Positions 21,381-41,213 of a stretch of DNA of 41,736 nt are shown piece by piece. The stretch is from a candidate division TA06 bacterium SM23_40 (GTDB lineage: Bacteria > LJUI01 > SM1-40), in the NCBI GenBank assembly GCA_001303705.1, contig LJUI01000006.1:1-41736 (forward strand). Direction: 5' to 3'. How positions within the stretch are numbered: position 1 is the stretch's first letter; each line of letters starts with the position of its first letter. Under the pieces are notes generated by a model. That model had not been told where the DNA came from and searched no databases. It was given only the letters and a program-made list of their open reading frames with translations. The position numbers and the translations under genes were made by a program.

Positions 21381-21409
21381 TTGCAAGCACCCAGGGGCCG
21401 TGGTATGAT
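21381..21409 (+). promoter_or_regulatory. proximal promoter for HMG-CoA synthase operon
   Basis: TTGCAA-N17-TATGAT with TG extension. Confidence 0.65.
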
Positions 21410-21472: not shown

Positions 21473-22519
21473 ATGGTTGGAATTGTAGGGTACGGTACGT
21501 ACATTCCGAGACACAGAATCAAAGTGGAAGCAATCGCCAAGGTCTGGGGAGCGGATGCACCGAGCTACGAACGCGGCCTGCTGCTCAAGGAGAAGTCCGT
21601 TCCCACGCCGGACCAGGATACGATCACGATGTCCGTCGAGGCGGCAAAGAACGCCCTGCGACGCGCCCAGATAGATCCATCGGAGATAGGCGCAGTATAT
21701 GTCGGTTCAGAGTCACATCCCTATGCTGTGAAGCCGAGCGGCACGGTCCTCGCCGAGGCAATCGGAGCGACCCCCGAAGTCCACTGCGCTGACTTCGAAT
21801 TCGCCTGCAAGGCCGGCACTGAGGGTATGTTCGTCTGCATCGGCCTCGTCCAGGCCGGCTTGATACGATATGGGCTGGGAGTCGGGGCGGATACCTCACA
21901 GGGGGCACCTGGAGATGCTCTCGAGTATTCGGCTGCCGCCGGAGCGGCCGCATTCATCTTCGGAGACGACAAGGTAGTGGCCGAAGTCGAGGAGACCTAC
22001 GCGTACATGACAGACACGCCGGACTTCTGGAGACGAGAGCATCAGTTCTATCCGGAGCACGGAGGCAGGTTCACCGGCGAGCCCGCATACTTCAAGCACA
22101 TCATGGGCGCGGCAAGAGGGATCATGGCCAAAGCGAACGCCACCGCCGCCGACTTCACCTATGTCATCTTCCACCAGCCGAATGGCAAATTCCCCCAGAG
22201 GGTCGGTAAGATGCTCGGTTTCACCAAGACCCAGATCGAGCCCGGGTGGCTCTCCCCCACCTTAGGCAATACCTATTCTGGATCATCGCCCATGGGACTC
22301 GCGTCCACGCTCGACATTGCCAAAGCAGGTGACCGGATCCTGCTCGTCTCTTATGGGTCGGGAGCGGGGAGCGATGCGTTCATCTTCCGCGTCACCGAGC
22401 GAATTGATGAAGTGCGCGACGTCGCGCCCAGAACGCGCGATCAACTCGATAACAACAAGGTCTACATCGACTACGGAACATACGCAAAGTTCCGTGGGAA
22501 GATACGCAAAGCCACCTAG
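21473..22519 (+). CDS. hydroxymethylglutaryl-CoA synthase, archaeal type
   Basis: [28 protein letters not shown] (catalytic Cys), [50 protein letters not shown] 21473 after GAGGA. Confidence 0.93.
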
Positions 22520-22531
22520 GAGGTTACGCGA

Positions 22532-23689
22532 ATGAGGGACGTTGCAGTAATCGGTGTGGGAATGGCCAAGTGGGGTGAATTGTGGGACAAGGCATTGCGG
22601 GACGTCTTCGTCGAAACCGCCCTCCTGGCAATCGATGATGCCGGGGTGGACCACATCGACTCGATGTACGTCGGGTGCATGTCGAGTGGACTCTTCGTCG
22701 GACAGGAGCATCTGGCATCACTTCTGGCGGACTACCTGGGCATCGCGCCCGTGCCTGCGGCGCGGGTGGAGACTGCCTGTGCCTCTGGCGGCCTTGCCTT
22801 CCGCCAGGGCTGGATGGAGGTGGCACTGGGACAGAGCGATATCGTACTCGTGTCCGGTATCGAGAAGATGACGGACGTCACAGGCGATGGCGCCACGTAT
22901 GCGCTCGGCACCGCGGCTGATCAGGAGTACGAGGGATATCACGGCATCACCTTCCCGGGCCTGTACGCCATGATGGCCAGACGGCACATGCATGACTACG
23001 GGACGACGAGAGAGCAACTGGCCCAGGTCGCAGTGAAGAATCACCGCCACGGAGCCATGAATCCCCTGGCCCAGTTCCCGTTCGAGGTGACGATCGACCA
23101 GGTGAAGAGCTCCGTCATGATCGCCGACCCCCTCAGGATACTCGACTGCTCCCCGATCACCGATGGAGCAGCCGCCGTCGTCATCTGCCCCCTGGACCGG
23201 GCCAAGACGTTGGGCGACAAACCGCCCGTCAAGATGGTCGGCTCCGGACATGCAACGGACACGATCGCACTCCACGCCCGCCCCGACATAACGTGGCTGA
23301 GCGCGACGGAGAGAGCGGCGGAAGCGGCCTATAAGATGGCAGGCGTCAAGCCGGACCAGATCGACCTGGCTGAAGTCCATGACTGCTTCACAATAGCCGA
23401 GATATGCGTTACCGAGGCCCTGGGGTTTGTCGACAGGGGAAAGGGCGGGCAGGCGGTCGAGAGCGGTTTCACCGCACTCGGTGGGACGATACCGGTCAAC
23501 ACGAGTGGGGGATTGAAGTCGAAGGGTCACCCTGTCGGCGCTACGGGGGTGGCTCAGATCGTCGAACTGACGAAGCAACTGCGCGGCGATGCTGGCGACC
23601 GGCAGGTGGAAGGTGCCAGGGTCGGGCTTGCCCAGAACATGGGTGGTAGCGGTGGCAGCACCCTCGTACACATACTGGAGGCAACATAG
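22532..23689 (+). CDS. acetoacetyl-CoA thiolase, archaeal/SCP2-like type
   Basis: VETACASG (Cys), [47 protein letters not shown]. Confidence 0.92.
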
Positions 23690-24079
23690 ATGAGTTCACC
23701 CCGATACTGGAGAGAGATCCCTCAGCGCTATAGACTCGAGGCGGGCAAGTGCACAGACTGTGGGAATATCCACTTCCCGCCCCGGCTCGTCTGTTCTGCA
23801 TGCAGCGGACGCCAGTTCGAGACTGTCAAGCTCTCAGATGAGGGGACGGTCTTCACGTACACGATTATCCGCGTCGCGCCCAGCCAGTTCGTCGATCAGG
23901 CTCCCTACGCCGTCGGGATCGTCGAACTGGACGACGGAGTGAGAATCTCGGCGCAGATCGCGGACGTCGACCTCGACGCACTCGAGATCGGCCAGCGTGT
24001 CCGCATCGAATTTCGCCTGATCCAGAACGAGGGAGAGGCCGGGATCATCTGCTACGGATACAAGTGCGTCCCGGCCTAG
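23690..24079 (+). CDS. DUF35 Zn-ribbon/OB-fold protein (thiolase/HMGCS scaffold)
   Basis: PRYWRE...RYRL...KC..CG...FPPR..C..C, G.V.TYT.I, I.YGYK; abuts thiolase stop. Confidence 0.92.
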   Translation: MSSPRYWREIPQRYRLEAGKCTDCGNIHFPPRLVCSACSGRQFETVKLSDEGTVFTYTIIRVAPSQFVDQAPYAVGIVELDDGVRISAQIADVDLDALEIGQRVRIEFRLIQNEGEAGIICYGYKCVPA

Positions 24080-24211
24080 GACCCGCGAGGAGGACGGGTG
24101 GGAGATCCATGGCCGAATGACCGAATGATCAGTGATCCCGGTCCGGGCGGTCCTCGCCGCTCCACCAGACGTCAGATCTCCTGCCCCAACGGCTGACGAG
24201 AGAGTCGAAGC

Positions 24212-25819
24212 ATGTATCGGATAGAATCGAGGATCGACACGTCGAGTCAGGAATTCAAGGAGAACAAGGAGTACTACCTCGAGAAGATCGAGGAATTCCG
24301 AAGCCGACTCGAACAGGCAAAGGCCGGCGGGCCACCGGCGGCCCATGAAAAACACAAGTCCCGCGGCAAGCTCACCGCGCGGGAGCGCCTCCGGCTTCTC
24401 TTCGACCCCGGCACCCCCTTCCTCGAGTTCAGCTCGCTCGCAGCATATGACATGTACAAGAATGAAGCCCCCTGTTCAGGCATCGTGACAGGTGTCGGTG
24501 TGGTCCACGGCAAAGAGGTGCTCATCGTTGCCAACGACGCTACCGTCAAAGGCGGGACCTATTTCCCCGAAACGATCAAGAAGCACGTCCGGGCCCAGGA
24601 GATCGCACTCGAAAACAGACTCCCCTGTGTCTATCTCGTCGACTCGGGCGGGATCTTTCTTCCACTCCAGGCAGGAGTCTTCCCGGATAAAGGGCATTTC
24701 GGCAGCATCTTCTACAATCAGGCGAGACTGTCGGCGTTCTCCATTCCGCAGATTTCGGTCGTCCTCGGGTTCTGCACCGCCGGCGGCGCATACGTGCCGG
24801 CAATGAGCGACGAGACGGTGATCGTGAAGGGAAGAGGTACCATCTACATCGGCGGCCCTCCGCTCGTGAAGGCCGCCACGGGCGTCGATGTCACCCCGGA
24901 GGAACTCGGGGGAGCGGATGTCCACTGCCGCATCTCCGGTGTCTCCGATCACTACGCGCTCGACGACGAACATGCCCTGGAGATCACCCGGAACATCGTC
25001 GAAAACCTCCCCCGACCAACGAAATTCCAACTGGATGTGGCTCCGCCCGAGGATCCGGCATATGACCCGGAGGAGATCTACGGGATAGTCCCCCGCGATC
25101 TCCGAAAGCAGTTCGACATCCGCGAAGTGATCGCGCGATTGGTCGACGGAAGCCGGTTTCACGAATTCAAGGAACTCTACGGCACTACCCTCGTCTGCGG
25201 CTTTGCCCGCATCATGGGGTACCCCGTCGGAATCCTCGCGAACAATGGGGTCCTCTTCTCGGAGAGCGCGCTGAAAGGAGCCCATTTCGTCTCGATGTGT
25301 TCCGTGCGCAAGATCCCCCTCCTCTTCCTTCAGAATATCACCGGGTTCATCGTTGGCAAGGAGTACGAACACGGGGGCATTGCGAAGGACGGGGCAAAGA
25401 TGGTGCATGCGGTCGCCAATGCGGACGTGCCCAAGTTCACAGTGATCGTCGGGGGATCGCATGGAGCCGGCAACTACGGGATGTGTGGGCGGGCGTACGG
25501 ACCGCGCCTCATGTGGATGTGGCCTGCCGCGAAGATCTCCGTCATGGGCGGCGAGGAAGCAGCGAATGTACTCCTTACTGTCAAGATGGACATACTCCGC
25601 CGCGAAGGAAAGACGATGACCCCGGAGGAACAGGAGGCGTTCAAGGCCCCCACCCTGGAGAAATACGAGCAAGAAGGAAGCGCATATTTTGCCACCGCCC
25701 GGTTGTGGGACGATGGTGTGATCGAGCCGCTCGACACCAGGACGGCCCTCGCCCTGGCGATCTCCATGTCCCTCAATGCACCGATCCCGGATCACCGCTT
25801 CGGCGTATTCAGGATGTAG
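24212..25819 (+). CDS. methylcrotonyl-CoA carboxylase-like carboxyltransferase (beta) subunit
   Basis: [101 protein letters not shown]. Confidence 0.9.
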
Positions 25820-25850
25820 AAGATCCATAGCCCGAGTGAGCAGACCGAGA

Positions 25851-26654
25851 ATGCAGGACTACACGACCATCAGATGTGATGTCGGCGACAGGGTGGGACG
25901 CATCCTGCTCAATCGTCCCGAGATCCACAATGCGTTCAACGACGTCATGATTACCGAGCTGCTTGAGGTCCTCTCCCGCCTGGCGTCTGACGAGGACGTC
26001 CGCGTCGTCGTCCTGACCGGCAGCGGCAAGTCATTCTGCGCCGGCGCTGACCTCCACTGGATGAAGGCGGTCAAGGACTACTCGTACGACGAAAATGTCG
26101 CCGACGCTCTCGAGCTGTCGAAGCTCCTCTACGCCATCTACTCGCTCCCCAAGCCGACGATCGCCAGAGTGAATGGCGCAGCCATCGGGGGGGGCACCGG
26201 CTTCGTGTCGACCTGCGATATGGCCATCGCTGCCGAGACAGCGAAGTTCAGTTTCAGCGAGGTCAAGATCGGAGTTGTGCCTGCATGTATCTCTCCCTAC
26301 GTAGTCCGAAAGGTGGGTGAGGGAACATGCCGTGAGTTCTTCCTTACCGGCAAGCGTCTCACAGCTGCCGAAGTGGAGCAAGCGGGACTCGTCAACCGGG
26401 TCGTTCCTGTTGAACAGCTCGACGCCGCTGTCGACGATCTGATCAAGGAGCTTCTCTCGAGCGGGCCACATGCACTCGGGGTATGCAAAGACTTACTGGA
26501 GAACGTCCCGTCGATGTCGCTCGAAGACGCTCAGCTATACACGGCGAAGATCCTCGCCACGCTCCGCATGGGCGACGAGGGTCAAGAAGGCATGTCTGCG
26601 TACTTCGATAAGAGGAAACCGCAGTGGGCTTCGCCCCAGCAGCCAGCGGACTGA
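25851..26654 (+). CDS. enoyl-CoA hydratase family, probable methylglutaconyl-CoA hydratase (LiuC-like)
   Basis: LNRPE.HNAFN, FCAGADL.WM, GAAIGGG.G, FSEVKIG..PA.ISPYV, EGQEG..A...KRKP.W; sits between MCC subunits. Confidence 0.85.
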   Translation: MQDYTTIRCDVGDRVGRILLNRPEIHNAFNDVMITELLEVLSRLASDEDVRVVVLTGSGKSFCAGADLHWMKAVKDYSYDENVADALELSKLLYAIYSLPKPTIARVNGAAIGGGTGFVSTCDMAIAAETAKFSFSEVKIGVVPACISPYVVRKVGEGTCREFFLTGKRLTAAEVEQAGLVNRVVPVEQLDAAVDDLIKELLSSGPHALGVCKDLLENVPSMSLEDAQLYTAKILATLRMGDEGQEGMSAYFDKRKPQWASPQQPAD

Positions 26655-26683
26655 CCAGATCCTGTCTACCGATCGAGATCGAG

Positions 26684-26717
26684 GCGGTGTAGGGGGTAGT
26701 GCGGTGTACGGGGCAGT
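26684..26717 (+). repeat. tandem imperfect 17-bp direct repeat
   Basis: GCGGTGTAGGGGGTAGT / GCGGTGTACGGGGCAGT (15/17 identical). Confidence 0.6.
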
Positions 26718-26771
26718 CCTGAGGCAGGCCCAGGAGGCTCTGGCCCGAAGGAGGGAGACTTTCCGAGCACA

Positions 26772-28292
26772 ATGCTGAAGAAAGTCCTTGTAGCAAACAG
26801 AGGTGAGATCGCCGTACGCATCATCCGGGCCTGTCGGGAGGTCGGTATCCCGACAGTTGCTGTCTATTCCGATGTCGATCACTCCTCCCTTCACGTCCAG
26901 CTCGCCAACGAGGCATACTCGCTCGGGCCCCCACCTCCTCTGGAAAGCTATCTCAATATCGATAAGATCATCGACATCGCAAAGATGAGTGGGGCTGACG
27001 CCATCCATCCCGGATATGGCTTCCTCGCCGAGAATTACCATTTCACCAAGCGATGCGAGGATGAGGGGCTGATTTTCGTGGGCGCCACCTCCGAGGCCAT
27101 CAGGTTGCTCGGGAACAAGCTGGAATCCCGGGAGACGATGATACGGGCTGGAATCCCGGTCATCCCCGGCATGGAGACTGCCGTTCGCGATACGGCCGCC
27201 CTCGTGCAACAGGCATCCCGAATCGGATACCCGGTTCTGATCAAAGCTGCCTCCGGCGGAGGAGGCAAGGGCATGAGGGCCGTCAGTTCTCAGGCAGAGC
27301 TCGAACGCGCACTGGAGGGAGCCCGCCGGGAGTCGAAATCGGCGTTCGGCGACGACACCGTCTACGTAGAGAAGTTCATCGAACGGCCCCGCCACGTGGA
27401 ATTTCAGATACTGGCGGACCATTCGGGCAACACAGTCCACCTATTCGAACGGGAGTGCTCGATCCAGCGGCGGCATCAGAAGATAGTCGAAGAAACTCCC
27501 TGTACCGCTCTCGACGACCAGCTGAGGAGGAAGATGGGAGAGGTGGCGATCGAAGTCGCCAGGGTGGCACACTACACAAATGCGGGGACCGTCGAGTTCC
27601 TGCTCGATCAGGATGGCGACTTCTACTTCCTCGAAGTCAACACCAGGGTCCAGGTGGAACACCCCATAACCGAGATGACGACCGGTATCGACATCGTCAA
27701 GCTACAGCTCGCCCTCGCCTCGGGAGACCCCATTCCGGTGAAACAACAGGATATCGTCCCGAGAGGCCATTCGATCGAAGCGAGGATCTACGCCGAGGAC
27801 GCTGAGAACGATTTCATGCCTTCGTTCGGAACAATACTATTCCTCCAGGAACCGGCCGGCCCTGGAATACGCAACGATACCGGCATCTACGCCGGATGCG
27901 ACGTGACGATGCACTATGACCCCATCCTGGCGAAACTGATCGTCTGGGACGAGAACCGCGAGATGGCGCGAAGTCGCATGCTCACGGCACTCAGGGATTA
28001 CACCATTCTAGGGATCAAGACCACGATTGCCTTCCTTCGAGACGTCATCGCGCACCCGGAGTTTGCCGCCGGCAATACACATACGGACTTCATCCCCGAG
28101 CATTTCGCCCAGTGGCGCGAAGCGGGGGACGAACCGGCGAACCTGGATGTTGCGCTCCTCTCGGCCGCCATCTACAGGCATCTCAATCCGCCGCGGGCAG
28201 CAGGACGAGCAGCCGCATCGGGCCCTGCATTTCCCAATCCATGGAATGCTACCGGAGAGTGGGAGATCGGCCAGGGGAAGGGAGCAGACTGA
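26772..28292 (+). CDS. biotin carboxylase subunit of acyl-CoA carboxylase
   Basis: KVLVANRGEIA, IHPGYGFLAEN, GGGGKGMR, ERECSIQRRHQK, FLEVNTRVQVEHP, ARIYAED, YDPILAKL. Confidence 0.95.
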   Translation: MLKKVLVANRGEIAVRIIRACREVGIPTVAVYSDVDHSSLHVQLANEAYSLGPPPPLESYLNIDKIIDIAKMSGADAIHPGYGFLAENYHFTKRCEDEGLIFVGATSEAIRLLGNKLESRETMIRAGIPVIPGMETAVRDTAALVQQASRIGYPVLIKAASGGGGKGMRAVSSQAELERALEGARRESKSAFGDDTVYVEKFIERPRHVEFQILADHSGNTVHLFERECSIQRRHQKIVEETPCTALDDQLRRKMGEVAIEVARVAHYTNAGTVEFLLDQDGDFYFLEVNTRVQVEHPITEMTTGIDIVKLQLALASGDPIPVKQQDIVPRGHSIEARIYAEDAENDFMPSFGTILFLQEPAGPGIRNDTGIYAGCDVTMHYDPILAKLIVWDENREMARSRMLTALRDYTILGIKTTIAFLRDVIAHPEFAAGNTHTDFIPEHFAQWREAGDEPANLDVALLSAAIYRHLNPPRAAGRAAASGPAFPNPWNATGEWEIGQGKGAD

Positions 28293-28299
28293 GAGAAAA

Positions 28300-28809
28300 G
28301 TGGAACTGAATCTCACGTTCAATAACGAAGAGTACAGACTGGGGGTGGAACGAGCTGAGGACGGATACGAGGTGACGGTGGGAGATCGGATCTACCAGGT
28401 CTCAGTACGCCCCATCTCCTCGAACACGTTCTCTCTCGTAATCCACGGGGCCAACCGGCTCATCCATATCGCGTCGGCCGGGCGAGCCACATACGTGGCC
28501 GTCGATGGGCGGCAGTTCTGCTTCCAGGAAGCCACACCCGGTGGCCGTAAGCACGGCACCAGGGACCTCCCGATCGACAGACGAGAATTGACGGCGATCG
28601 CGCCTATGCCCGGAAGGGTGGTCAAGCTGAACGTCACGGAGGGCGATCGGGTTGAACGCGGCCACACACTGGCAGTGGTAGAGGCCATGAAGATGGAGAA
28701 CGAGGTGCGGGCCCCGATTGACGGCTACGTGGACCGCGTCCTCGTGCGGGAGGACGACATGGTGAACGTGGGACAGGTGATGATCGAGCTCAAGAGTGGG
28801 GAGGATTGA
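28300..28809 (+). CDS. biotin carboxyl carrier protein with N-terminal BT-like domain
   Basis: APMPG.V, VEAMKMENE..AP biotinylation motif; probable GTG start at 28300. Confidence 0.88.
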   Translation: MELNLTFNNEEYRLGVERAEDGYEVTVGDRIYQVSVRPISSNTFSLVIHGANRLIHIASAGRATYVAVDGRQFCFQEATPGGRKHGTRDLPIDRRELTAIAPMPGRVVKLNVTEGDRVERGHTLAVVEAMKMENEVRAPIDGYVDRVLVREDDMVNVGQVMIELKSGED

Positions 28810-28811
28810 GG

Positions 28812-29066
28812 TCATTCGTCCGCCAGCCTGACTTCAAATACGAGGCCAGTGTCGTCGGGACACGAAGCACAGGTTACATTCTTGTTACCTTCCCAGAAGA
28901 ACTTCCCTCCGCACTGCAGAGTCAGAATGAGAGGAAAGAGTGCATCGAAAGCAGAGGTGCACATCCCCTCGGGAGTGAGGTTACCGATCGTCCAGCTATC
29001 CCCCACCTTGTGGAATCCCTGATTGCATTCGCCGCTCTTGACGGTTGCCCTGACAGGCTTCATCAC
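28812..29066 (-). CDS. small Cys-containing protein, TIGR04076-like
   Basis: G.C..G.HKVGD, PEGMC..A...L.P, SCPD...VFE; AAGGAG RBS. Confidence 0.75.
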   Translation of the reverse strand: MMKPVRATVKSGECNQGFHKVGDSWTIGNLTPEGMCTSAFDALFPLILTLQCGGKFFWEGNKNVTCASCPDDTGLVFEVRLADE

Positions 29067-29084
29067 AGTGCTCCTTTCCCGACG

Positions 29085-29738
29085 CTAGACATCCTCGTCC
29101 TTCAGACCGGCTATGGCACGGCGCATATCATCGGCCTGGAAGATCGCCGTCGCCGCCACCAGTATGTCGGCACCTGCCTCGATCAGTTGCCTTGCCAACT
29201 CCGGCTTCACTCCACCGTCGACCTCGAGCTCTATCTCGTACCCCGCGGCCCTGATCTGCCTCTTGGTCTCGGCCATCTTGGCCAACACTCGGCGATCGAA
29301 TTCCTGGCCAGCGCGGCCCGGCTGGACGGACATGATCAATAACAGATCGATCTCGGGGAAGAGTGATGCCAGCTGCTCAGTGGGAGTGTCGGGATTCACC
29401 GCGATACCGGCTCGCGCCCCGCGCCGCCTGATATCCGACAGAACGGTCCGTGGCTCCGGACACGCCTCATAGTGGATCGTGATGTAATCCGCCCCGGCTT
29501 CCACCATCGGCTGTACCCAGTTCCCTGGATCTGCGACCATCAGGTGAACGTCGAGGGGCAGCGAAGTCCAGCTATCCACCTTCGCCACCAAGGTGTGATC
29601 GAACGTCGCGTTGTCAACGAATCGACCGTCCATCACATCGAGGTGAATAAGATCGACACCCGCAGACTCAGCCTTCTCGACTTCCGCCTTCAGCCTGGAG
29701 AAATCCGCCGACAGAATCGATGCTGCGACTTTCGGCAT
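29085..29738 (-). CDS. rpe: ribulose-phosphate 3-epimerase
   Basis: SILSADF, HLDVMDG.FV.N, DVHLMV, MSV.PG..GQ, EVDGG; start could be 29738, 29744 or 29756. Confidence 0.95.
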   Translation of the reverse strand: MPKVAASILSADFSRLKAEVEKAESAGVDLIHLDVMDGRFVDNATFDHTLVAKVDSWTSLPLDVHLMVADPGNWVQPMVEAGADYITIHYEACPEPRTVLSDIRRRGARAGIAVNPDTPTEQLASLFPEIDLLLIMSVQPGRAGQEFDRRVLAKMAETKRQIRAAGYEIELEVDGGVKPELARQLIEAGADILVAATAIFQADDMRRAIAGLKDEDV

Positions 29739-29801
29739 ACCCATTCCCTCGATCATCGTGTGTCGCCGTCACCTTCCACACTCGCTTGCCAAACACATAT
29801 T

Positions 29802-31427: not shown

Positions 31428-31536
31428 CCCAGCACAGCATCACGCGGAGTCAGGCAACGAAGCTGATCGGAGCGGCATGGCCCGATCCCATAGACGGCTA
31501 TAGGGATGTCACATGCGGATGAGAGGGGGAGAAGGT

Positions 31537-33213
31537 ATGCTAAGGCTTGTTGAGTGCGTCCCCAACTTCAGTGAAGGCAGGGACATGGATATTGTCAACA
31601 ATATCTCAGCCGAGATCTCCAGCACAGCCGAGGTCAAGCTCCTCGACGTAGATCCCGGCCGCGATACCAACCGAACCGTCGTGACGTTCATCGGTTCTCC
31701 GGAAGGTGTCATCGAGGCAGCGTTCAACGCCATCAGGAAGGCAGCCGAGCTCATCGACATGTCGAAACACGAGGGCGCCCATGCTCGCATGGGAGCAACC
31801 GACGTCTGTCCGCTCGTACCCGTGAGTGGAGTCACCATGGACGATTGTGTCGAGCTGGCCAGGCGACTCGGGAAACGGGTGGCCGACGAACTCAAGATTC
31901 CGGTCTACCTCTATGAGAATGCAGCCACCGTACCCGAACGCCGGAAGCTGCCGACGATTCGAAAGGGTGAGTACGAGGGACTGGCGGACAAGCTGAAGGA
32001 TCCCCAATGGAAGCCAGATTTCGGCGAACCGGTCTTCAACCCCAGGTCCGGGGCGACGGTAGTCGGAGCGCGCGAATTCCTCATCGCGTACAACATAAAT
32101 CTCAACACGACCGACGCGAGGCTGGCGAAGGAGATAGCCTTCAATATCCGCGAGACCGGAAAGGCAAAGCGGGACAAGGACGGCAGGATCGTCAGAGACG
32201 AGAATGGCCGCGCCCTGAGACAACCAGGGACCCTCAAAGCATGCAATGCTACAGGGTGGTATCTCGATGATTTCGGCATCGCCCAGGTCACGATGAATCT
32301 CATCAACTACAAGGTGACGCCGCCCCACGTTGCGTTCGAAGAGGTCGTTCGCGAGGCAGATCGCCTCGGGCTTCGCGTCACCGGCAGTGAGCTCGTGGGC
32401 TTGATCCCGAAAGCTGCCGTACTGGAGGCGGGCCGCTACTTTCTACAGAAGCAAGGGAAGTCCGCTGGCGTACCTGAGGAAGTCCTCATCGAAACCGCAA
32501 TACGCTCGATGGGGTTCAGGGAGATCGCCGAATTCGACCCGCGGAAGAAGATCATCGAATATCAATTCGGCCGGAACGAGGATTCCCTCGTATCAAAGGA
32601 TATCCAGAGTTTCATGAACGAGCTGTCTGTCGACTCTCCGGCTCCTGGAGGGGGGAGTGCGGCTGCCCTGTGCGGAGCTCTCGCAGCATCGCTTGCCTCC
32701 ATGGTGGCCAATCTCACCTTCGGCAAGAAGGAATATAGAGACTCGCAGGATGAGATGGAACGTATCGCCGTCAGGGCTCAGGAGCTGAAGGATGGGTTCG
32801 TGGCCGCCATCGACCGCGATACCGCGGCCTTCAACAGAGTCATGGCGGCATTCAGGCTGCGGAAGAAGACGGACGAGGACAAGGCGCGGAGACAGGAGGC
32901 CATCCAGGAGGCAACAAAGCAGGCCACCCTCGTGCCGCTCGAGGTACTCGAAACCTCGGTCGAGGCCCTCAAGCTCGCACTCCGCGTCGCCGAGAAAGGG
33001 TTGCGGACCTCCGTCAGCGATGCGGGCGTGGCCGGCGTCGCCGGGCGGGCGGCGGCCATCGGAGCCTACTACAACGTCCGGATCAACCTCGCATCGATCA
33101 CCGATGAGGCGTTTGTGGGAAAAGTGCGCAATCAGGCAACGACGTACCGCGATGAGGCGCTCAAGCTCGCCGATCGGATCGCAGAGGCCGTCGGGCAAGA
33201 ACTCGAGAAATAG
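31537..33213 (+). CDS. ftcd: bifunctional glutamate formimidoyltransferase / formimidoyltetrahydrofolate cyclodeaminase
   Basis: LVECVPNFSEGR, H.GAH.RMGA.DV.P, GSELVGLIP; C-terminal SPAPGGGS, SMVANLT, SDAGV. Confidence 0.93.
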   Translation: MLRLVECVPNFSEGRDMDIVNNISAEISSTAEVKLLDVDPGRDTNRTVVTFIGSPEGVIEAAFNAIRKAAELIDMSKHEGAHARMGATDVCPLVPVSGVTMDDCVELARRLGKRVADELKIPVYLYENAATVPERRKLPTIRKGEYEGLADKLKDPQWKPDFGEPVFNPRSGATVVGAREFLIAYNINLNTTDARLAKEIAFNIRETGKAKRDKDGRIVRDENGRALRQPGTLKACNATGWYLDDFGIAQVTMNLINYKVTPPHVAFEEVVREADRLGLRVTGSELVGLIPKAAVLEAGRYFLQKQGKSAGVPEEVLIETAIRSMGFREIAEFDPRKKIIEYQFGRNEDSLVSKDIQSFMNELSVDSPAPGGGSAAALCGALAASLASMVANLTFGKKEYRDSQDEMERIAVRAQELKDGFVAAIDRDTAAFNRVMAAFRLRKKTDEDKARRQEAIQEATKQATLVPLEVLETSVEALKLALRVAEKGLRTSVSDAGVAGVAGRAAAIGAYYNVRINLASITDEAFVGKVRNQATTYRDEALKLADRIAEAVGQELEK

Positions 33214-33334: not shown

Positions 33335-35449
33335 CTAGCACGGGGCTGGACTCACATTGATGCGAACGTCAACGACCTTGCAGTCCTCGGGCCTGGGAGC
33401 AGCGATGAACGGGTTGACATCGAGCTCACCGATACAGTGGAAGTCAGTAACCAACTGAGAGAGCCGCTGGAGGGATTCGACCAACGTTTCGATATGGACA
33501 CCCTCCTCCCCGCGCATTCCGGTGAGGAGCGGATAGCCGCGAATGGACGTCACCATCTCCTCCGCGTCCACATCAGTGATGGGAACGACACGGAAAATCA
33601 CATCACGTAGCACCTCGACGTACTTCCCTCCCAGTCCGAACATCAGAAGGGGACCATATGTCGGGTCGTAGACCATGCCGAGAATAACCTCCTGGCCCGT
33701 CTTCCCCATCTCCTGCACATAATAGCCTTCGACCCTGTCGATCACACCGTGTTTCGTCAGGGCCTTCTTCATCGTCCTGAAGGCCTCCACGAACTCCTTG
33801 CCATCACGTATGTCGACGATGACGCCGCCGATATCTGATTTGTGAACGATACCCCTTCCGGCGACCTTGAGGACGAGCGGATATCCCAGCTCTTCGGCTG
33901 CCTCGAGGCCATCCTCGATCGTATCGACAAGTTTCAGGCGGCAATACCGGAACCCGTATGCGGCGAGGACTTCGTAGGCCTCCAGCTGCTCGAGATATCC
34001 TCCTCCGCCACGCTGCCGGGATTCGAGTATCTTCGCTGCTCTTTCCCGGTCGACATCCGCGACTGCGACCTCTCCCTTCGGTCTGGACCGCCATGTATGG
34101 TAGTGGTACAGCTCGGCACACGCACGGGCGGCAGATTCGGGAAACCGGTACACCGGCGGACTGTCGGGCACAATCAGTGGAACCTGCTCGAAAAATGTCT
34201 CCTCGGCCATGAAGACCCCCAATACTGGCTTCTCGAACCGCTGCTTCACCTCCGTCACCGCCCTGATGATGTCAACCGGGTTGATCATCATGGGTGGTAC
34301 GAACGTGACAATCACCATATCGTTGTCGGGATCGGCGAGGATGAGTTCGAGCGCTCTGCGATAGTCATCGGCAACCGCGCTCGCTATCATGTCGACTGGA
34401 TTGACGATGCTCGCTTCAGGAGGGAGAAACCGCCGGAGCCCCTCGACTGTCTCGGGCGACAGTGTGGCAATCTTTAAGCCGAGACTGACGCAGGCGTCTG
34501 TGGCCATTATGGCGGGGCCGCCTGCATTCGTGAGGATGGCAACTCGATTGCCGCAGGGCACAGGACATTTGGTGAACGCGAGTATGAGATCGAGCATCTC
34601 TTCGATATCGAACGCTCGAATCACTCCACACTGATGAAGAAGCGCGTCGACGGCCACATCCCGGGCCACCATTGCGCCGGTATGGGAAGATGCGGCGCGG
34701 GCTCCTGCCTCCGTCCTACCCGACTTCACTACGATGATCGGCTTTTTCTTGGAGATACGTCTCGCGAGTGGGGTGAATGAGCGCGGGTCGCCGAAGGATT
34801 CGAGATAGAGAGCTATCACTTCTGTCTGGTCATCATTCTCCCAGTATTCGAGCAGGTCGTTCCCGGAGATGTCCGCCTTATTGCCGACACTGGCGAAATA
34901 GGAGAATCCTATGTGAGCACGCTGAGCGACATTGAGGATCGCCACCCCTAACGCGCCGCTCTGGGACATGAAGCCGATCCTTCCCTGAGACGGCTGCGTA
35001 GGGGCAAAGGTCGCGTTGAGACGAACATCAGGATCGGCGTTGAATACTCCCATGCAGTTGGGCCCGATCATGCGCATACCATGGCGGCGCACAATCTCCA
35101 TCAACTTCTGTTCGCGCTCGATGCCCTGGCCGCCGATCTCCTTGAAGCCAGCGCTTATGACGATAAGGCCTTTGACACCCTTTTCTCCACACTGCTCCAC
35201 GACCTCGAGCACGCTCTCCTTGGGAACGACGATAACCGCCAGATCAACTTCATCCGGGATATCAGTAATTGAATGGTAGCACTTGATACTGTGGGTGAAC
35301 TCGGCCCTCGGGTTGACAGGGAATAGCTTGCCGTTGAACTCGAAATCAATGATATTGCGCACGATCTGGTGGCCGATCGCACCCTTGCGCGTTGAGGCCC
35401 CGATCACGGCAACTGACTTCGGTCTGAAAATGGGGTCGAGCGATGACAT
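33335..35449 (-). CDS. ADP-forming acyl-CoA (acetate--CoA) ligase, fused alpha/beta
   Basis: P.SVAVIGAS, GPNCMG, SQSGA, GNKAD, ASSHTG (His), TNAGG, NPVD; ATP-grasp LKV...IVHKSD.GGV, ELDVNP; no GNAT domain. Confidence 0.9.
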   Translation of the reverse strand: MSSLDPIFRPKSVAVIGASTRKGAIGHQIVRNIIDFEFNGKLFPVNPRAEFTHSIKCYHSITDIPDEVDLAVIVVPKESVLEVVEQCGEKGVKGLIVISAGFKEIGGQGIEREQKLMEIVRRHGMRMIGPNCMGVFNADPDVRLNATFAPTQPSQGRIGFMSQSGALGVAILNVAQRAHIGFSYFASVGNKADISGNDLLEYWENDDQTEVIALYLESFGDPRSFTPLARRISKKKPIIVVKSGRTEAGARAASSHTGAMVARDVAVDALLHQCGVIRAFDIEEMLDLILAFTKCPVPCGNRVAILTNAGGPAIMATDACVSLGLKIATLSPETVEGLRRFLPPEASIVNPVDMIASAVADDYRRALELILADPDNDMVIVTFVPPMMINPVDIIRAVTEVKQRFEKPVLGVFMAEETFFEQVPLIVPDSPPVYRFPESAARACAELYHYHTWRSRPKGEVAVADVDRERAAKILESRQRGGGGYLEQLEAYEVLAAYGFRYCRLKLVDTIEDGLEAAEELGYPLVLKVAGRGIVHKSDIGGVIVDIRDGKEFVEAFRTMKKALTKHGVIDRVEGYYVQEMGKTGQEVILGMVYDPTYGPLLMFGLGGKYVEVLRDVIFRVVPITDVDAEEMVTSIRGYPLLTGMRGEEGVHIETLVESLQRLSQLVTDFHCIGELDVNPFIAAPRPEDCKVVDVRINVSPAPC

Positions 35450-36350: not shown

Positions 36351-37808
36351 ATGTCCGCGAAGGTGCACCGCGCCATATTGCTGGCTATCCTGGCATTCGC
36401 CGGCACAGCATTAGCTGTTCCGAGGGAGAACAATATCCCCGGAGAGGCTTCATCCGACTTCCTGCCCGCCTATATGACGCCGGAGGAGGAAGGGCTTCGC
36501 CACCTGATCGGAGTGGATCACCGCTGGACGCCTCCTCCCACACAGCCGGTACGTTGTCCGGGAGAATTCGAGCCCCTGGACGGCGTCCTCATCAGATGGT
36601 ACACCTTCTCCGTTACCATCGACCTAATCGACGAGATCCAAGAGGAGACGACCTGCTACATAATAGTCGATAACGCCTCCCAGCAGTCATACGCCGAGTC
36701 GTATCTCACAGGTGTCGGGATCCCGCTCGACAACATTCAATTCATAATCGGGCCAACCAATTCGATCTGGATCCGCGATTACGGTCCGTGGTTTATCTGG
36801 GACGGAGACGGCGGGTACGGCATCGTAGATCTCATCTACAATCGCCCGAGACCTCTGGACGACCTTATTCCCCAGGTGATAGGAGATGCGTGGGATATCC
36901 CTGTGTACGAGCCCACTCTGGTCCATGCGGGCGGGAACTTCATGGTCGACGGGATCGGCACCGGGATGTCGAGCGAGTTGATATATGAAGAGAATCCGGG
37001 CCTCACACCGGCAGAGATCGACTCGGTAATCGAGTACTACCTCGGCTGCGAGCAATTTCTCGTCCTCCCGCGCATGTACGGCGAGTACACCGGGCACATC
37101 GACATCTGGGCCAAGATACTGAACGATCACACCGTGATGGTGGGCGAGTACCCTCCCGGGAACCCGAACTACCAGCGCCTCAATGATAATGCCGCCACCA
37201 TCGCCTCGACCCAGAACCTGAACGGCGAGTATTACGACGTGGTGCGCATCCCCATGCCCCCCGATCCCCCCCCGAATGACTATCCCACATACCTCAACTC
37301 GCTCTTCGTCAATAGCAAAGTGCTCGTCCCCGTCGGGTACGACGTCGCGTACGACGATTCTGCCATGACCATCTATGAGAATGCCCTGCCGGATCGCGAC
37401 ATCATCGGCATCGACTGCGCGGCCATGATCGGCTGGGGCGGGGCAGTCCACTGCATCACCATGCAGGTTCCATCCCGCAGCCCTGTCACCATCGATCTCG
37501 TCCCCGACGCCACTGTCTTCGCGACAGGTGACACCCTCGGCTTCACGGCCCACCTCGTCAATCAGACCCCGGAGGTCCAGACCTTCTACGCGCGGACCGA
37601 GGCGCTAGTGCCGGGGGTGGGCAGCTATCCGCTCATGGGCCCGATGCGGGTAACGCTCTCGCCCGGGCAGGTGGTCGATCGATATATCGCTCACGAGATT
37701 CCGGGCAATGCTCCGCTCGGGGAATACGAGTACATTGCCACCATCGGCGTGCCGCCGGACGAGGTGTGGTGTGAGGATAGCTTCACGTTCGATGTGATTG
37801 CAGAGTAG
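36351..37808 (+). CDS. secreted agmatine/peptidylarginine deiminase family protein with C-terminal Ig-like domain
   Basis: Signal peptide ending ALA; P.EFE, WIRDYGP, GGN.MVDG.G, GHID, Y.N....N, GGAVHCIT (catalytic Cys); AGGAGG RBS. Confidence 0.9.
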   Translation: MSAKVHRAILLAILAFAGTALAVPRENNIPGEASSDFLPAYMTPEEEGLRHLIGVDHRWTPPPTQPVRCPGEFEPLDGVLIRWYTFSVTIDLIDEIQEETTCYIIVDNASQQSYAESYLTGVGIPLDNIQFIIGPTNSIWIRDYGPWFIWDGDGGYGIVDLIYNRPRPLDDLIPQVIGDAWDIPVYEPTLVHAGGNFMVDGIGTGMSSELIYEENPGLTPAEIDSVIEYYLGCEQFLVLPRMYGEYTGHIDIWAKILNDHTVMVGEYPPGNPNYQRLNDNAATIASTQNLNGEYYDVVRIPMPPDPPPNDYPTYLNSLFVNSKVLVPVGYDVAYDDSAMTIYENALPDRDIIGIDCAAMIGWGGAVHCITMQVPSRSPVTIDLVPDATVFATGDTLGFTAHLVNQTPEVQTFYARTEALVPGVGSYPLMGPMRVTLSPGQVVDRYIAHEIPGNAPLGEYEYIATIGVPPDEVWCEDSFTFDVIAE

Positions 37809-38031: not shown

Positions 38032-40095
38032 ATGTCACCGACGCGGGAGATCTACTGGAATATCCCCGGCCATCTGCTGCTGTACCCGCTCTTCGCCATC
38101 TCTCTTGCCATCTTCGCCTATGGAGTCTGGAGAAGAGTGCGCCTGTGGATGCTCGGCGCACGGCACCTCAGCGCCGCTTCCCCCGGCGTCATCCATGAGA
38201 TCTATCCAACCACCCCGGGCCGGCGCATAGCTCGCGTAGTCTCTCTCGGACTGGGACACGCACGATTTTTCCGGACGCCATTTCCCGGTATCGCTCACTT
38301 CCTGCTGTTCTGGGGATTTGCTGTTCTCCTTGTCGGCACGATAATCGTCTTTCTCGAGGCCGACCTCCCGGGCCGCTTCTACTTCGGTCCGTTCTATTTG
38401 GCTGTCTCATTCGCCCTCGAGCTCGGAGGGATCGCCTTCCTTCTCGGAATTCTGCTCCTAGGGTTGAGACGCTACATCCAACGCCCCGAGCAGCTGGACG
38501 AGCGATTCGACGACAAGATCGCACTCGCCCTTCTTCTCTTCCTGGCCGTAAGCGGCTTCCTCATCGAAGGACTCCGCCTCTATGTTCTACAGCCACCGTG
38601 GGAGAGTTGGTCGTTCGTAGGAGCCGGCATCGCCAGGCTCGCCGGTGCGGCCTCGTTGAGCGATGGCGCAACTACCAGGCTGCACCAGCTCTTCTGGTGG
38701 CTGCACCTTCTGGCCACATTCGGATTCATTGCTTATATTCCGTATTCGAGGCTCCTCCACATCCTCACATCGCCGATCAACATCGCCGTCGCGTCCTCCG
38801 ATCCCCGGGGAACACTCAGGCCCATGGATCTCGAGGCATCGGAGATCTATGGCACCTCGCAGATCGACGAATTCGCGCCGAAGCAGCTTCTCGAGCTCGA
38901 CGCCTGCACCCGGTGTGGCCGGTGTCAGGCTGTCTGCCCCGCCCATCTCAGCGACAAGCCGCTCTCTCCCAAGAAAGTTCTTCAAGATTTGAGACACCAC
39001 CTCTCCGTGTACGGACCGACCATCCTGAGGGCGTCGAGGGCGGGAGAGAAGAATCAGGAAGCCACAGCGGACCCGGAGCTGCCCCTTGTCACCGGCGGGA
39101 CGATCGAGGAGGACGTGCTCTGGGCGTGCACCACCTGCGCCGCCTGCGAGACTGAGTGCCCCGTCCTTATACGGGTGATCGACAAGATCGCCGACATGCG
39201 TCGATACCTCGTCCTCTCGGAGAGCAAGTTTCCGTCCGAGCTCCGCCTCTTCTTCAAGAACATGGAGACGAATTTCAATCCGTGGGGGATCGGGTGGGCG
39301 ACCCGTGCCGACTGGGCCCAGGGACTCGACATCCCCATCCTCTCTGAGGTTGGGTCGAGCAAGTTGCTGTACTGGGTCGGCTGCGCCGCCTCATTCGACG
39401 AACGGAATAAGAAGGTCGCCGTGGCGACCTCCAGGCTCCTCAAGGCTGCCGGCGTCGAATTCGCAATCCTCGGTGCCGAGGAGAAATGCTGTGGAGAGAC
39501 TGCTCGCCGCCTGGGTAACGAATACCTGTTTCAGATGATGGCGATGGAGAATGTCGAACTCTTCAAGCAGTATGGTGTAACACGGATCGTCACCACTTGC
39601 CCTCACTGCTACAATTCCTTCAGGCACGAGTATCGAGAACACGGGACCGGAATCGAGGTGATCCACCATACCGAGCTCCTCGCCACATTGATCGAGGATA
39701 GTCGGCTCCGCCTCCATGGCCCCGCCGCCTCGGGAACAGCGGTCTATCACGACTCATGCTATCTCGGCAGATATAACGACATATTCGAAGCACCGCGTTC
39801 CGTCCTCAGAGCTGCTCTTGACCCGGCGCCGCAGGAGCTGCCCCGTGCGATGGATCGATCCTTCTGCTGTGGCGCGGGCGGCGGCCGGATGTGGATGGAA
39901 GAGACGATCGGCCAGAGGATAAACGAGTTGCGCACGCGCGAGGCGCTCGAGGCGGGTGTGGCGACGATATGCACCGCCTGTCCCTACTGCCTCACCATGT
40001 TCGAAGACGGGTTGAAGGCGGAGAACGCTGACGAACGTGTTCGCGTTCGGGACATCGCGGAGCTGGCCGAGGAGGCGGGAGAGGTATCGGTCTGA
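38032..40095 (+). CDS. membrane Fe-S oxidoreductase, FadF / ETF:quinone oxidoreductase (EMO)-like
   Basis: N-terminal TM domain with His (AHFLLFWG, WWLH, LLHIL); CTRCGRCQAVCP and CTTCAACETECP; CCG domains (WVGC, EKCCG, TCPHC, YHDSC, FCCGAGGG, ACPYC). Confidence 0.88.
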   Translation: MSPTREIYWNIPGHLLLYPLFAISLAIFAYGVWRRVRLWMLGARHLSAASPGVIHEIYPTTPGRRIARVVSLGLGHARFFRTPFPGIAHFLLFWGFAVLLVGTIIVFLEADLPGRFYFGPFYLAVSFALELGGIAFLLGILLLGLRRYIQRPEQLDERFDDKIALALLLFLAVSGFLIEGLRLYVLQPPWESWSFVGAGIARLAGAASLSDGATTRLHQLFWWLHLLATFGFIAYIPYSRLLHILTSPINIAVASSDPRGTLRPMDLEASEIYGTSQIDEFAPKQLLELDACTRCGRCQAVCPAHLSDKPLSPKKVLQDLRHHLSVYGPTILRASRAGEKNQEATADPELPLVTGGTIEEDVLWACTTCAACETECPVLIRVIDKIADMRRYLVLSESKFPSELRLFFKNMETNFNPWGIGWATRADWAQGLDIPILSEVGSSKLLYWVGCAASFDERNKKVAVATSRLLKAAGVEFAILGAEEKCCGETARRLGNEYLFQMMAMENVELFKQYGVTRIVTTCPHCYNSFRHEYREHGTGIEVIHHTELLATLIEDSRLRLHGPAASGTAVYHDSCYLGRYNDIFEAPRSVLRAALDPAPQELPRAMDRSFCCGAGGGRMWMEETIGQRINELRTREALEAGVATICTACPYCLTMFEDGLKAENADERVRVRDIAELAEEAGEVSV

Positions 40096-40217: not shown

Positions 40218-41213
40218 CTACTCCCCCAGGATATGCCTCAGCTCCTGGGTGACTATCGGAACAGCCTCGAACAGATCGGCCACGATCCCGTAGTCCGCAA
40301 TCTTGAAGATGGGCGCCTCCGGATCCTTGTTGATCGCCACGATACATTTCGACGAAGACATTCCCACCAGGTGCTGTATCGCCCCGGAGATACCGCATGC
40401 AATATAGAGATTGGGAGATATCACCTTGCCGGTCTGGCCGACCTGATCGGCGTGATCTCTCCACCCCTCATCGACGGCGGATCGTGAAGCGCCGACGGCA
40501 GCACTGAGCAGATCGGCCAATTCCTCGAGGATTTTGAAATTCTCGGCACCCTTCATTCCCCTACCGCCCGAGACGACAACCTCCGCATCGGCGACATTGA
40601 TCCGCTCACCTACAGTCTCTATCATCTCAACGATGGCGGTGCGGGCAGGCTCGGGCGAGGGAACGAACTCCAGGGTCTCTGTCTCCGCAGTCCGTGCTGC
40701 ATCCGGTTCGCCGAGGGGAAAGATGTTGGGGCGCACAGTTGCCATCTGAATGCCCCCGTGCGGCCAGTCCACCTCGGCGATGACCTTCCCTCCGTACATG
40801 GGTCTGTATGCCTTGAGCGTCTGCCCATCACCCGTCACGTTCAGGTCGGTACAGTCTGTCGCCAGTCCTGCTCCGATGCGCGTTGCAACCCGAGGGGCAA
40901 GATCCTTCCCCAGCACTGTTGCGCCGAAGAGAACGATGGCCGGTTGCTGCCGGCGCAACGCCTCAGTCAGTGCCGACGCATAAGCATCAGTAGTGTAGTG
41001 TTCCAGAGCGTCGTGCTCGACAAGGAGAACGCGATCTGCACCGTACTGCGCCAGCGTACCTGCAGCATCGCGGATCCCCTTCCCGCAGACGATGGCTACA
41101 ACGTCCTTCCCTAACGTATCTGCAAATTCCCTGGCCTGACTGAGGAGTTCGAGCGATACTCTACGCGCCTCACCTTTCCTCATCTCGATGAATACAGCAA
41201 CACCATTCGGCAC
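40218..41213 (-). CDS. etfA: electron transfer flavoprotein alpha subunit
   Basis: [55 protein letters not shown] start after GAGG. Confidence 0.96.

Follow-up and report, generated by a model that had tools for sequence, protein, structure and literature searches.

Textbook accounts of leucine breakdown take HMG-CoA lyase, the enzyme acting on HMG-CoA (in full, 3-hydroxy-3-methylglutaryl-CoA), as the last step, and the liuRABCDE cluster of Pseudomonas, which serves leucine and isovalerate utilisation, includes this lyase. In Myxococcus xanthus, an alternative isovaleryl-CoA pathway is made up of MvaS, LiuC, AibA/B and AibC, and a complex of thiolase, HMG-CoA synthase (HMGCS) and a DUF35 protein was reportedly described in archaea in 2018 by Voegeli et al. 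The locus analysed here is a seven-gene operon at positions 21473-28809 (+ strand) of a 41,736-nucleotide stretch, hereafter the window, from contig LJUI01000006.1 of the candidate division TA06 bacterium SM23_40 (GCA_001303705.1), a metagenome-assembled genome (MAG) of 2.88 Mb in 189 contigs, 89.76% complete and with 1.32% contamination. In this operon, a thiolase/HMGCS/DUF35 trio of the archaeal type stands together with the genes of a methylcrotonyl-CoA carboxylase (MCC) and a crotonase. One report (PMC5109826) describes an isovalerate cluster of Desulfococcus multivorans in which Mcc, EchA2 and HmgL are induced on 3-methylbutanoate; another (PMC9636800) touches on the myxobacterial route from HMG-CoA to isovaleryl-CoA, and a third proposes leucine-to-mevalonate channelling for the archaeon Calditenuis ramacidaminiphagus (PMC12979851). 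Bacterial homologues of the trio repurposed as Friedel-Crafts acylases appear in PMC12960953, according to which bacteria with the methylerythritol phosphate (MEP) pathway are free to reuse the complex, and acyl-CoA dehydrogenases (ACADs) not running reductively, as well as DUF35-thiolase pairs as scaffolds, are treated in bioRxiv 2024.07.05.601840. A full-text search of the literature found no description of the operon or of a lyase-free route.

This feature is genuine and conserved, to judge from our literature search undescribed, and represents a variant of leucine/isovalerate metabolism with a proposed key step. A widespread operon of the Aminicenantes, Zixibacteria, Eisenbacteria, Coatesbacteria, Glassbacteria, Ignavibacteria, Planctomycetota and others has, in fact, an HMG-CoA-forming complex where the textbook has a lyase. 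Its seven genes may constitute one module that links 3-methylcrotonyl-CoA and acetyl-CoA wholly via CoA esters; HMG-CoA would stand in the middle, and a lyase would have no part in it. We put at somewhat under an even chance the proposal that leucine or isovalerate is broken down through this module, with the trio running backwards to yield three acetyl-CoA.

Architecture of the operon and identity of its genes

The first-pass annotation of this DNA had claimed seven co-oriented genes behind one promoter region, and the open reading frame (ORF) listing and the family scans placed all seven on the + strand at the coordinates originally given to them. The features of the unit are as follows:

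21381-21409, +, promoter-like site 5' of the first gene (TTGCAA-17-TATGAT, 9/12 matches plus extended TG)
21473-22519, +, archaeal-type HMGCS, 348 aa (TIGR00748 archaeal equivalog, 560.4 bits, cut-off 353.35)
22532-23689, +, SCP2-type acetoacetyl-CoA thiolase, 385 aa (NF004720, 552.5 bits, cut-off 420)
23690-24079, +, DUF35 scaffold protein, 129 aa (zinc ribbon PF12172, 48.5 bits, and OB fold PF01796, 81.8 bits)
24080-24211, gap of 132 nt between the operon halves, in which no terminator-like or promoter-like site was found
24212-25819, +, MCC beta, carboxyltransferase (CT), 535 aa (PF01039, 511 bits)
25851-26654 (alternative start 25776), +, crotonase in the LiuC position, presumed 3-methylglutaconyl-CoA hydratase, 267 aa (PF00378, 210.9 bits)
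26772-28292, +, biotin carboxylase (BC) part of MCC alpha, 506 aa (PF00289, PF02786 and PF02785), ending at TGA 28290-28292
28300-28809, +, separate gene for the BT domain and biotin carboxyl carrier protein (BT-BCCP), 169 aa, GTG start (PF00364 biotinyl domain, 66.3 bits)
29085-29756, -, ribulose-phosphate 3-epimerase (rpe), a convergent gene downstream that closes the operon unit

The gaps between the seven genes measure, in order, 12, 0, 132, 31, 117 and 7 nt. The absence of an internal terminator, also claimed initially, was borne out, as none of the gaps in the 21473-28809 region holds a terminator-like site and the region's seven such sites (shuffled sequence gives 5.1 +/- 2.4) all fall within coding sequence. 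As for the promoter region, one promoter-like site is located upstream of the first gene; it is a consensus match only, and such sites occur in the region at a frequency close to chance (3 versus 2.7 expected). In relatives, the gap that matches 24080-24211 is short or filled by unrelated inserted genes. An ORF of 178 aa without family match at 28806-29342 (+) overlaps rpe on the opposite strand and is probably no gene. Whole-genome family searches, finally, agree with the first-pass annotation that the window holds no HMG-CoA lyase, no HMG-CoA reductase (HMGR) and no ACAD, the isovaleryl-CoA dehydrogenase included; the ACADs and the lone HMGR-like gene are on other contigs, and an HMGL-like domain was found nowhere in the genome.

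Judged by its sequence, the trio is an archaeal-type thiolase/HMGCS/DUF35 set, in which synthase, adjacent thiolase and DUF35 protein each show the expected features. HMGCS scores 555.8 bits against NF003274 (cut-off 244) and just 118.5 bits against the bacterial-type model TIGR01835 (cut-off 360.35), and among solved proteins it matches best HMGCS of Methanothermococcus thermolithotrophicus (6ESQ_I, 491 bits), in an alignment that retains EFACKAGT and FHQPNGKF. The thiolase, which against the equivalog NF053570 scores 554.2 bits, slightly below the cut-off of 600, has 6ESQ_A as top solved relative (390 bits) and retains ACASG and HDCF, and the DUF35 protein has 6ESQ_E (105.7 bits), with all four ribbon cysteines aligned. 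The three window proteins thus match best the three chains of the M. thermolithotrophicus complex, their genes are adjacent, and the active-site stretches and zinc-ribbon cysteines are kept; the three would be predicted to form a physical complex. Unlike the archaeal trio, that of the window belongs to what is probably a diderm bacterium with the MEP pathway and no true HMGR, shares an operon with MCC and crotonase, and is proposed to run in the opposite net direction. The M. xanthus pathway likewise places an HMG-CoA synthase and a LiuC-like crotonase outside the mevalonate pathway, joining acetyl-CoA and a C5 branched acyl-CoA, but there the synthase is MvaS, whereas the window enzyme is of the archaeal type and comes with thiolase and DUF35; in addition, no CoA-transferase of the AibAB type was found in the window genome, which has a complete ATP-dependent biotin carboxylase instead.

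By sequence similarity, the CT and BC are closest to MCC, rather than to geranyl-CoA carboxylase (GCC) or propionyl-CoA carboxylase (PCC). The CT matches the solved chain 9TPS_A (759 bits) and the MCC beta subunits of P. aeruginosa (3U9R_B, 737 bits), human (MCCB, 736 bits) and M. tuberculosis (AccD1, 709 bits), compared to 468 bits for the GCC chain 5IKL_B and at most 297 bits for PCC-type chains. A GCC identity for the CT was therefore rejected (468 versus 737 bits for MCC beta). The top solved relative of the BC is human MCC alpha (8J4Z_E, 540 bits). The frame and start of the BT-BCCP gene were taken directly from the sequence: since the BC ends at TGA 28290-28292 and the next frame opens with GTG at 28300, MCC alpha is split into a BC gene and a BT-BCCP gene, the latter with a weak match to PF21139 (BT_MCC_alpha; 23.5 bits, under the cut-off of 31). 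Relatives show the same split, with a BC of about 500 aa followed by a gene of about 167-185 aa. The crotonase is under every equivalog cut-off (NF005675, 279 bits, cut-off 350; NF004227, 263 bits, cut-off 426) and has moderate matches only to solved relatives (5JBX, 123.6 bits; 4ZU2, 124.5 bits); to its counterparts in 27 complete blocks of relatives it is 47-61% identical, with its place between the MCC genes kept. As in the liu and D. multivorans clusters, MCC beta, crotonase and MCC alpha functions lie in one gene string. Differently from those clusters, MCC alpha consists of two genes instead of a single BC-BT-BCCP chain, no ACAD is present in the window, and neither operon nor genome has an HMG-CoA lyase, the trio occupying the place expected for it.

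Conservation of the block and its HMG-CoA partner enzymes

At least 596 relatives of HMGCS were confirmed among species-representative genomes, and the loci analysed are the best 80 of these at least 596, with identities of 68-81% and all from MAGs. Their labels include Aminicenantes/Acidobacteriota, Zixibacteria, Eisenbacteria, Coatesbacteria, Glassbacteria, Ignavibacteria, Calditrichota, Planctomycetota and Myxococcota, among others. Forty-eight of the 80 loci reach at least 7.4 kb past the HMGCS start, which was taken as long enough to judge. The full block in the window order is found in 27 of these 48 (in 19 cases spanning no more than 7.6 kb), an MCC-type CT is nearby, rearranged or cut by a contig end, in 6, a different set follows DUF35 in 3, and the trio is alone in 12; in the 32 shorter loci, a CT match downstream of DUF35 precedes the contig end in 16. 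All 27 complete blocks include the BC gene. Recurrence of this gene order in 27 of 48 loci from many phyla is far beyond chance, and the lack of synteny that the first-pass annotation had named as a reason to abandon its own reading did not materialise. The genes inserted within the block of some relatives are unrelated to it (an Mrr-like nuclease, a TPR protein, DUF2726, thiamine-phosphate synthase, a propeller protein with a type IX secretion tail, biotin ligase), and ACAD genes adjoin the block in 10 of the 80 loci. The different set just mentioned forms a variant operon (L082, L090, L098 and probably L070) of trio, crotonase, BC and a CT only 33-34% identical to that of the window, which may act on a different substrate.

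Linkage can also be followed in 61 genomes from the class of G045, a complete Aminicenantes chromosome; these are kin and mostly incomplete, and the counts are to be read as a strong pattern rather than as statistics. HMGCS is present in 23 of the 61 and an MCC-type CT in 20, that is, in 20 of the 23 genomes with HMGCS and in none of the 38 without it, and the HMGCS and CT matches share one contig in 17 of the 20. These figures bear on an explanation without direct coupling, in which the two halves are adjacent for regulatory or historical reasons and HMG-CoA exits via an unrecognised lyase, a hydrolase, or a lyase encoded in the missing 10% of the genome. The 12 long loci with the trio and no MCC nearby speak in favour of it, as do the incompleteness of the window genome (89.76% complete) and the 132-nt gap, which could hide an unrecognised promoter; MCC without the trio in 0 of the 38 class genomes argues against it. 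Also in its favour, lyases outside the HMGL family do exist, as shown by the CitE-like Rv2498c (PMC6689899); lyases were counted in both families.

Among 29 genomes with the full block, in fact, an HMG-CoA lyase over the NF004283 cut-off is present in only 3, with no HMGL-like match at all in 18, and a CitE-like gene over cut-off in just 9. The 40 genomes of the comparison set share only the domain level with the window genome, and no close kin are among them. In the window genome, no HMGL-like domain (PF00682, NF004283) was found, so that HMG-CoA lyase, LeuA, CimA and homocitrate synthase are all missing, and no CitE-like lyase (PF03328) was found either. Two complete chromosomes with the block lack an HMGL-like gene altogether: G045, which has ispH and no HMGR, and whose CitE is within a citrate lyase cluster, and the Zixibacteria chromosome G046. 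In G065, also a complete Zixibacteria chromosome, the HMGL-like matches are confined to a LeuA-like gene that adjoins genes resembling LeuC, and to a 620-aa frame, with no lyase above the NF004283 cut-off, and ispH is present while HMGR, CitE-like genes and family-I CoA-transferases were not found. That complete chromosomes, too, are without HMGL-like lyases, and that CitE-like genes are absent from the window genome and G065 and belong to citrate lyase in G045, makes the uncoupled explanation quite unlikely in our opinion. No match to the family-I CoA-transferases (AtoDA/SCOT/AibAB type; PF01144) was detected in the window genome, G046 or G065, and the usual route of acetoacetate reactivation is therefore missing as well.

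The first-pass annotation had suggested an undescribed HMG-CoA hub, which holds insofar as the block is conserved, lyase-free and, in the literature searched, not described. One of the two forms it gave to this idea was that the acetyl-CoA half and the leucine half both make HMG-CoA, which HMGR would draw off for isoprenoids through the mevalonate (MVA) pathway, and this form is not supported in the window genome. MEP genes are present there (dxs, 865 bits; ispH, 319 bits), the single GHMP kinase is IspE (TIGR00154, 247 bits, cut-off 138.7), no MVA kinases were found, and the sole HMGR-like gene reaches 55.5 bits on TIGR00533, for which the cut-off is 441.8, so that a true HMGR is missing from the genome. 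Among the 29 block genomes, no HMGR match was obtained in 18, the complete chromosomes G045 and G065 included, and the block persists unchanged in MEP-only lineages. In favour of a link to mevalonate, a strong HMGR (325-351 bits) is found in 7 of the 29, IspH was not found in G059 and G067, and the divergent gene of the window genome could be counted as well, as could the proposal made for Calditenuis (PMC12979851). There, leucine catabolic and HMG-CoA-forming enzymes converge on HMG-CoA as they do here, but the HMG-CoA enters the mevalonate pathway, of which the window genome has none. For the window genome, we consider the mevalonate link very improbable; it may hold in the 7 block genomes with a true HMGR, and mevalonate supply is plausible in some Zixibacteria that carry an HMGR-kinase fusion. 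In G046 (C1:888864-891508) and G059 (C3:111750-115377), strong HMGR and GHMP-kinase domains share a single frame of 822 and 778 aa, respectively, with more GHMP kinases next to it, apparently an HMGR-mevalonate kinase fusion heading a mevalonate operon; G046 has ispH and IlvC in addition.

The distant HMGR likeness in the window genome is that of a 455-aa protein encoded at C91:3265-4632 (-), with 40.9 bits on PF00368 besides its score on TIGR00533, adjoining a BamA-like gene from which a diderm host may be deduced; a similarly weak match (54.6 bits) is found in genome G056. The C91 protein could be another user of HMG-CoA.

The block thus occurs in MVA-only, MVA plus MEP, and MEP-only backgrounds. 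Because the MEP-only genomes with the block, the window genome among them, are without other known HMG-CoA partner enzymes, the two halves of the operon are expected to work in series.

Direction of the pathway

Since no further source or sink of HMG-CoA, among those known, is seen in complete genomes, either direction forces one enzyme against its textbook sense, be it HMGCS or the ATP-dependent biotin carboxylase. We infer both that the trio can be reversed and which way the pathway runs overall. [quoted passage not shown] The split MCC (CT, BC and BT-BCCP) would then carboxylate 3-methylcrotonyl-CoA using ATP, the crotonase would hydrate 3-methylglutaconyl-CoA to HMG-CoA, and the thiolase/HMGCS/DUF35 complex, working in reverse, would turn HMG-CoA and 2 CoA into 3 acetyl-CoA, where thiolysis of channelled acetoacetyl-CoA, being favourable, would draw the unfavourable reversal of the synthase along with it. 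By standard values, condensation by the thiolase takes about +25 to +28 kJ/mol and HMGCS gives back roughly as much; as an estimate, the overall reaction of the trio should be near equilibrium. As no free acetoacetate would be formed, the ATP spent on carboxylation would be recovered as an extra thioester. If the trio is indeed reversed, one energy-rich bond would be saved per leucine, which matters to slow-growing, peptide-using sediment bacteria. We suggest tentatively, and with slightly less than even confidence, that the trio is a reversible machine replacing HMG-CoA lyase in many uncultured anaerobic or energy-limited bacteria. If so, an HMG-CoA synthase would for the first time be seen to run in reverse physiologically, a textbook pathway would gain a new ending, and tools that score pathways in MAGs would have to treat leucine degradation and the mevalonate pathway differently.

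This direction is favoured by the complete ATP-dependent MCC, by the BC being kept in all complete blocks, by the lack of any acetoacetate reactivation route among the genes searched, and by the recurrence of ACADs next to the block (10 of 80 loci). The host's lifestyle also appears catabolic: the window genome has no IlvC and no LeuA-type enzyme, has six OFOR alpha genes and no detectable E1 subunit of branched-chain 2-oxoacid dehydrogenase, and carries, on contig C124, a class-IV aminotransferase gene clustered with those for 3-hydroxyacyl-CoA dehydrogenase (Hbd), thiolase and ACAD, with a methylmalonyl-CoA-mutase-type gene nearby; the window itself encodes an ADP-forming acyl-CoA synthetase (ACD), an ETF alpha and a membrane oxidoreductase. 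Four ACADs are found in the genome, all outside the window contig. Based on the missing IlvC and HMGL-like enzymes in a genome 89.76% complete, the host is probably auxotrophic for branched-chain amino acids, and the genome content as a whole fits a peptide- or amino-acid-using anaerobe unable to make these amino acids classically.

Several observations weigh against the catabolic proposal. We know of no physiological reversal of HMG-CoA synthase, which would require a thioester to be made from a free carboxylate without ATP. In a quick tree of HMGCS, the MCC-linked copies are not a clade apart from the copies of trio-alone loci: well-supported branches force at least 11 label changes, and the 22 changes counted compare with a mean of 26.3 when labels are shuffled. 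The two kinds of copies being intermixed, the sequence gives no sign of an altered function. The two block-adjacent ACADs examined are Bcd/SCAD-like, closer to the butyryl-CoA dehydrogenases (Bcd) of reductive, bifurcating systems (4L1F, 394 bits; 5OL2, 372 bits) than to isovaleryl-CoA dehydrogenases (about 212-252 bits). The substrate of the crotonase, 3-methylglutaconyl-CoA, is presumed solely from the conserved position between the MCC subunits, and the completeness of the window genome limits what its missing genes can be taken to mean. Of the genes for ACD, ETF alpha, the FeS oxidoreductase, formiminotransferase-cyclodeaminase (FTCD), Rpe, GAF-HD and others, none has a match adjoining the block in more than 1 of the 80 loci, and these neighbours therefore provide context for the window genome only. 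G046, lastly, has IlvC and no LeuA-type enzyme, which fits a leucine-making direction in that organism.

Alternatively, the pathway might be biosynthetic, as in the other form that the first-pass annotation gave to its hub. Acetyl-CoA would be converted by the trio to HMG-CoA, which the crotonase would dehydrate, and MCC would then run backwards, decarboxylating with a yield of ATP, to provide 3-methylcrotonyl-CoA, which would be reduced to isovaleryl-CoA; this could prime the synthesis of iso-fatty acids or, once carboxylated reductively by an OFOR and transaminated, serve as leucine. The trio would act in its known direction, and the MvaS-LiuC-AibAB-AibC route of myxobacteria does make isovaleryl-CoA from HMG-CoA. 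The Bcd-like ACADs adjoining the block, the six OFORs of reversible type, and the absence of LeuA-type enzymes from the window genome, G045 and G046, the last of which retains IlvC, all agree with such a route. No AibAB-type gene was found in the window genome, which leaves MCC as the only candidate decarboxylase. However, to our knowledge no biotin carboxylase runs physiologically backwards to make ATP, a normal ATP/ADP ratio drives MCC toward carboxylation, and myxobacteria evolved a separate decarboxylase despite having MCC. Retention of the BC gene in all 27 complete blocks is a further argument against it. The window genome, which is also without IlvC, must import branched-chain amino acids anyway, and G065 and G057 carry the block together with a LeuA/LeuC-type set. 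In the class sample, LeuA-size matches are absent from 33 of the 38 relatives without the block as well; the block is therefore not needed for that gap, and looks like an optional catabolic module rather than an essential leucine supply. We rate the biosynthetic direction below the catabolic one and consider it unlikely.

Whether the block exists for the sake of leucine biosynthesis was also examined, by looking for an anticorrelation with LeuA-type enzymes. HMGL-like domains are missing from 14 of the 23 class-sample genomes with HMGCS and from 17 of the 38 without it, and this candidate was rejected, the difference being too weak among kin with incomplete MAGs. A leucine pathway without LeuA, built on LeuC-like genes, was rejected as well: in G045 the genes resembling LeuC and LeuD look like citrate metabolism, and the LeuC-like gene of the window genome sits at a contig end. 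The G045 genes (C1:1208490-1217130) are accompanied by citrate lyase alpha, a CitE-ACP fusion, a 601-aa aconitase-family protein and a dehydrogenase of isocitrate/isopropylmalate type. In G061 (C14:7391-10847) and G064 (C27:2524-5940), both of which carry the block, genes above the HMG-CoA lyase cut-off (280 and 271 bits, respectively) share their strand with LeuC-like aconitase-family genes some 1.5 kb away.

Neighbouring genes and further observations

Beyond rpe, the window contains the following genes, three of which (ACD, membrane oxidoreductase and ETF alpha) are in the zone 5-12 kb downstream of the operon:

31513-33213, +, FTCD with three FTCD domains (family match)
33335-35449, -, ACD
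36351-37808, +, Porphyromonas-type arginine/agmatine deiminase-family gene (family match)
38032-40095, +, CCG/4Fe-4S/NarI-like membrane oxidoreductase
40218-41213, -, ETF alpha

The architecture of the oxidoreductase and ETF resembles that of the ETF:menaquinone oxidoreductases of syntrophs, and the FTCD and deiminase-family genes are further signs of amino-acid catabolism. Elsewhere in the genome, a gene of the RuBisCO large-subunit family (C188:8473-9792; PF00016, 241.8 bits) has genes for an ACAD, a short-chain dehydrogenase and a proline dehydrogenase close by.

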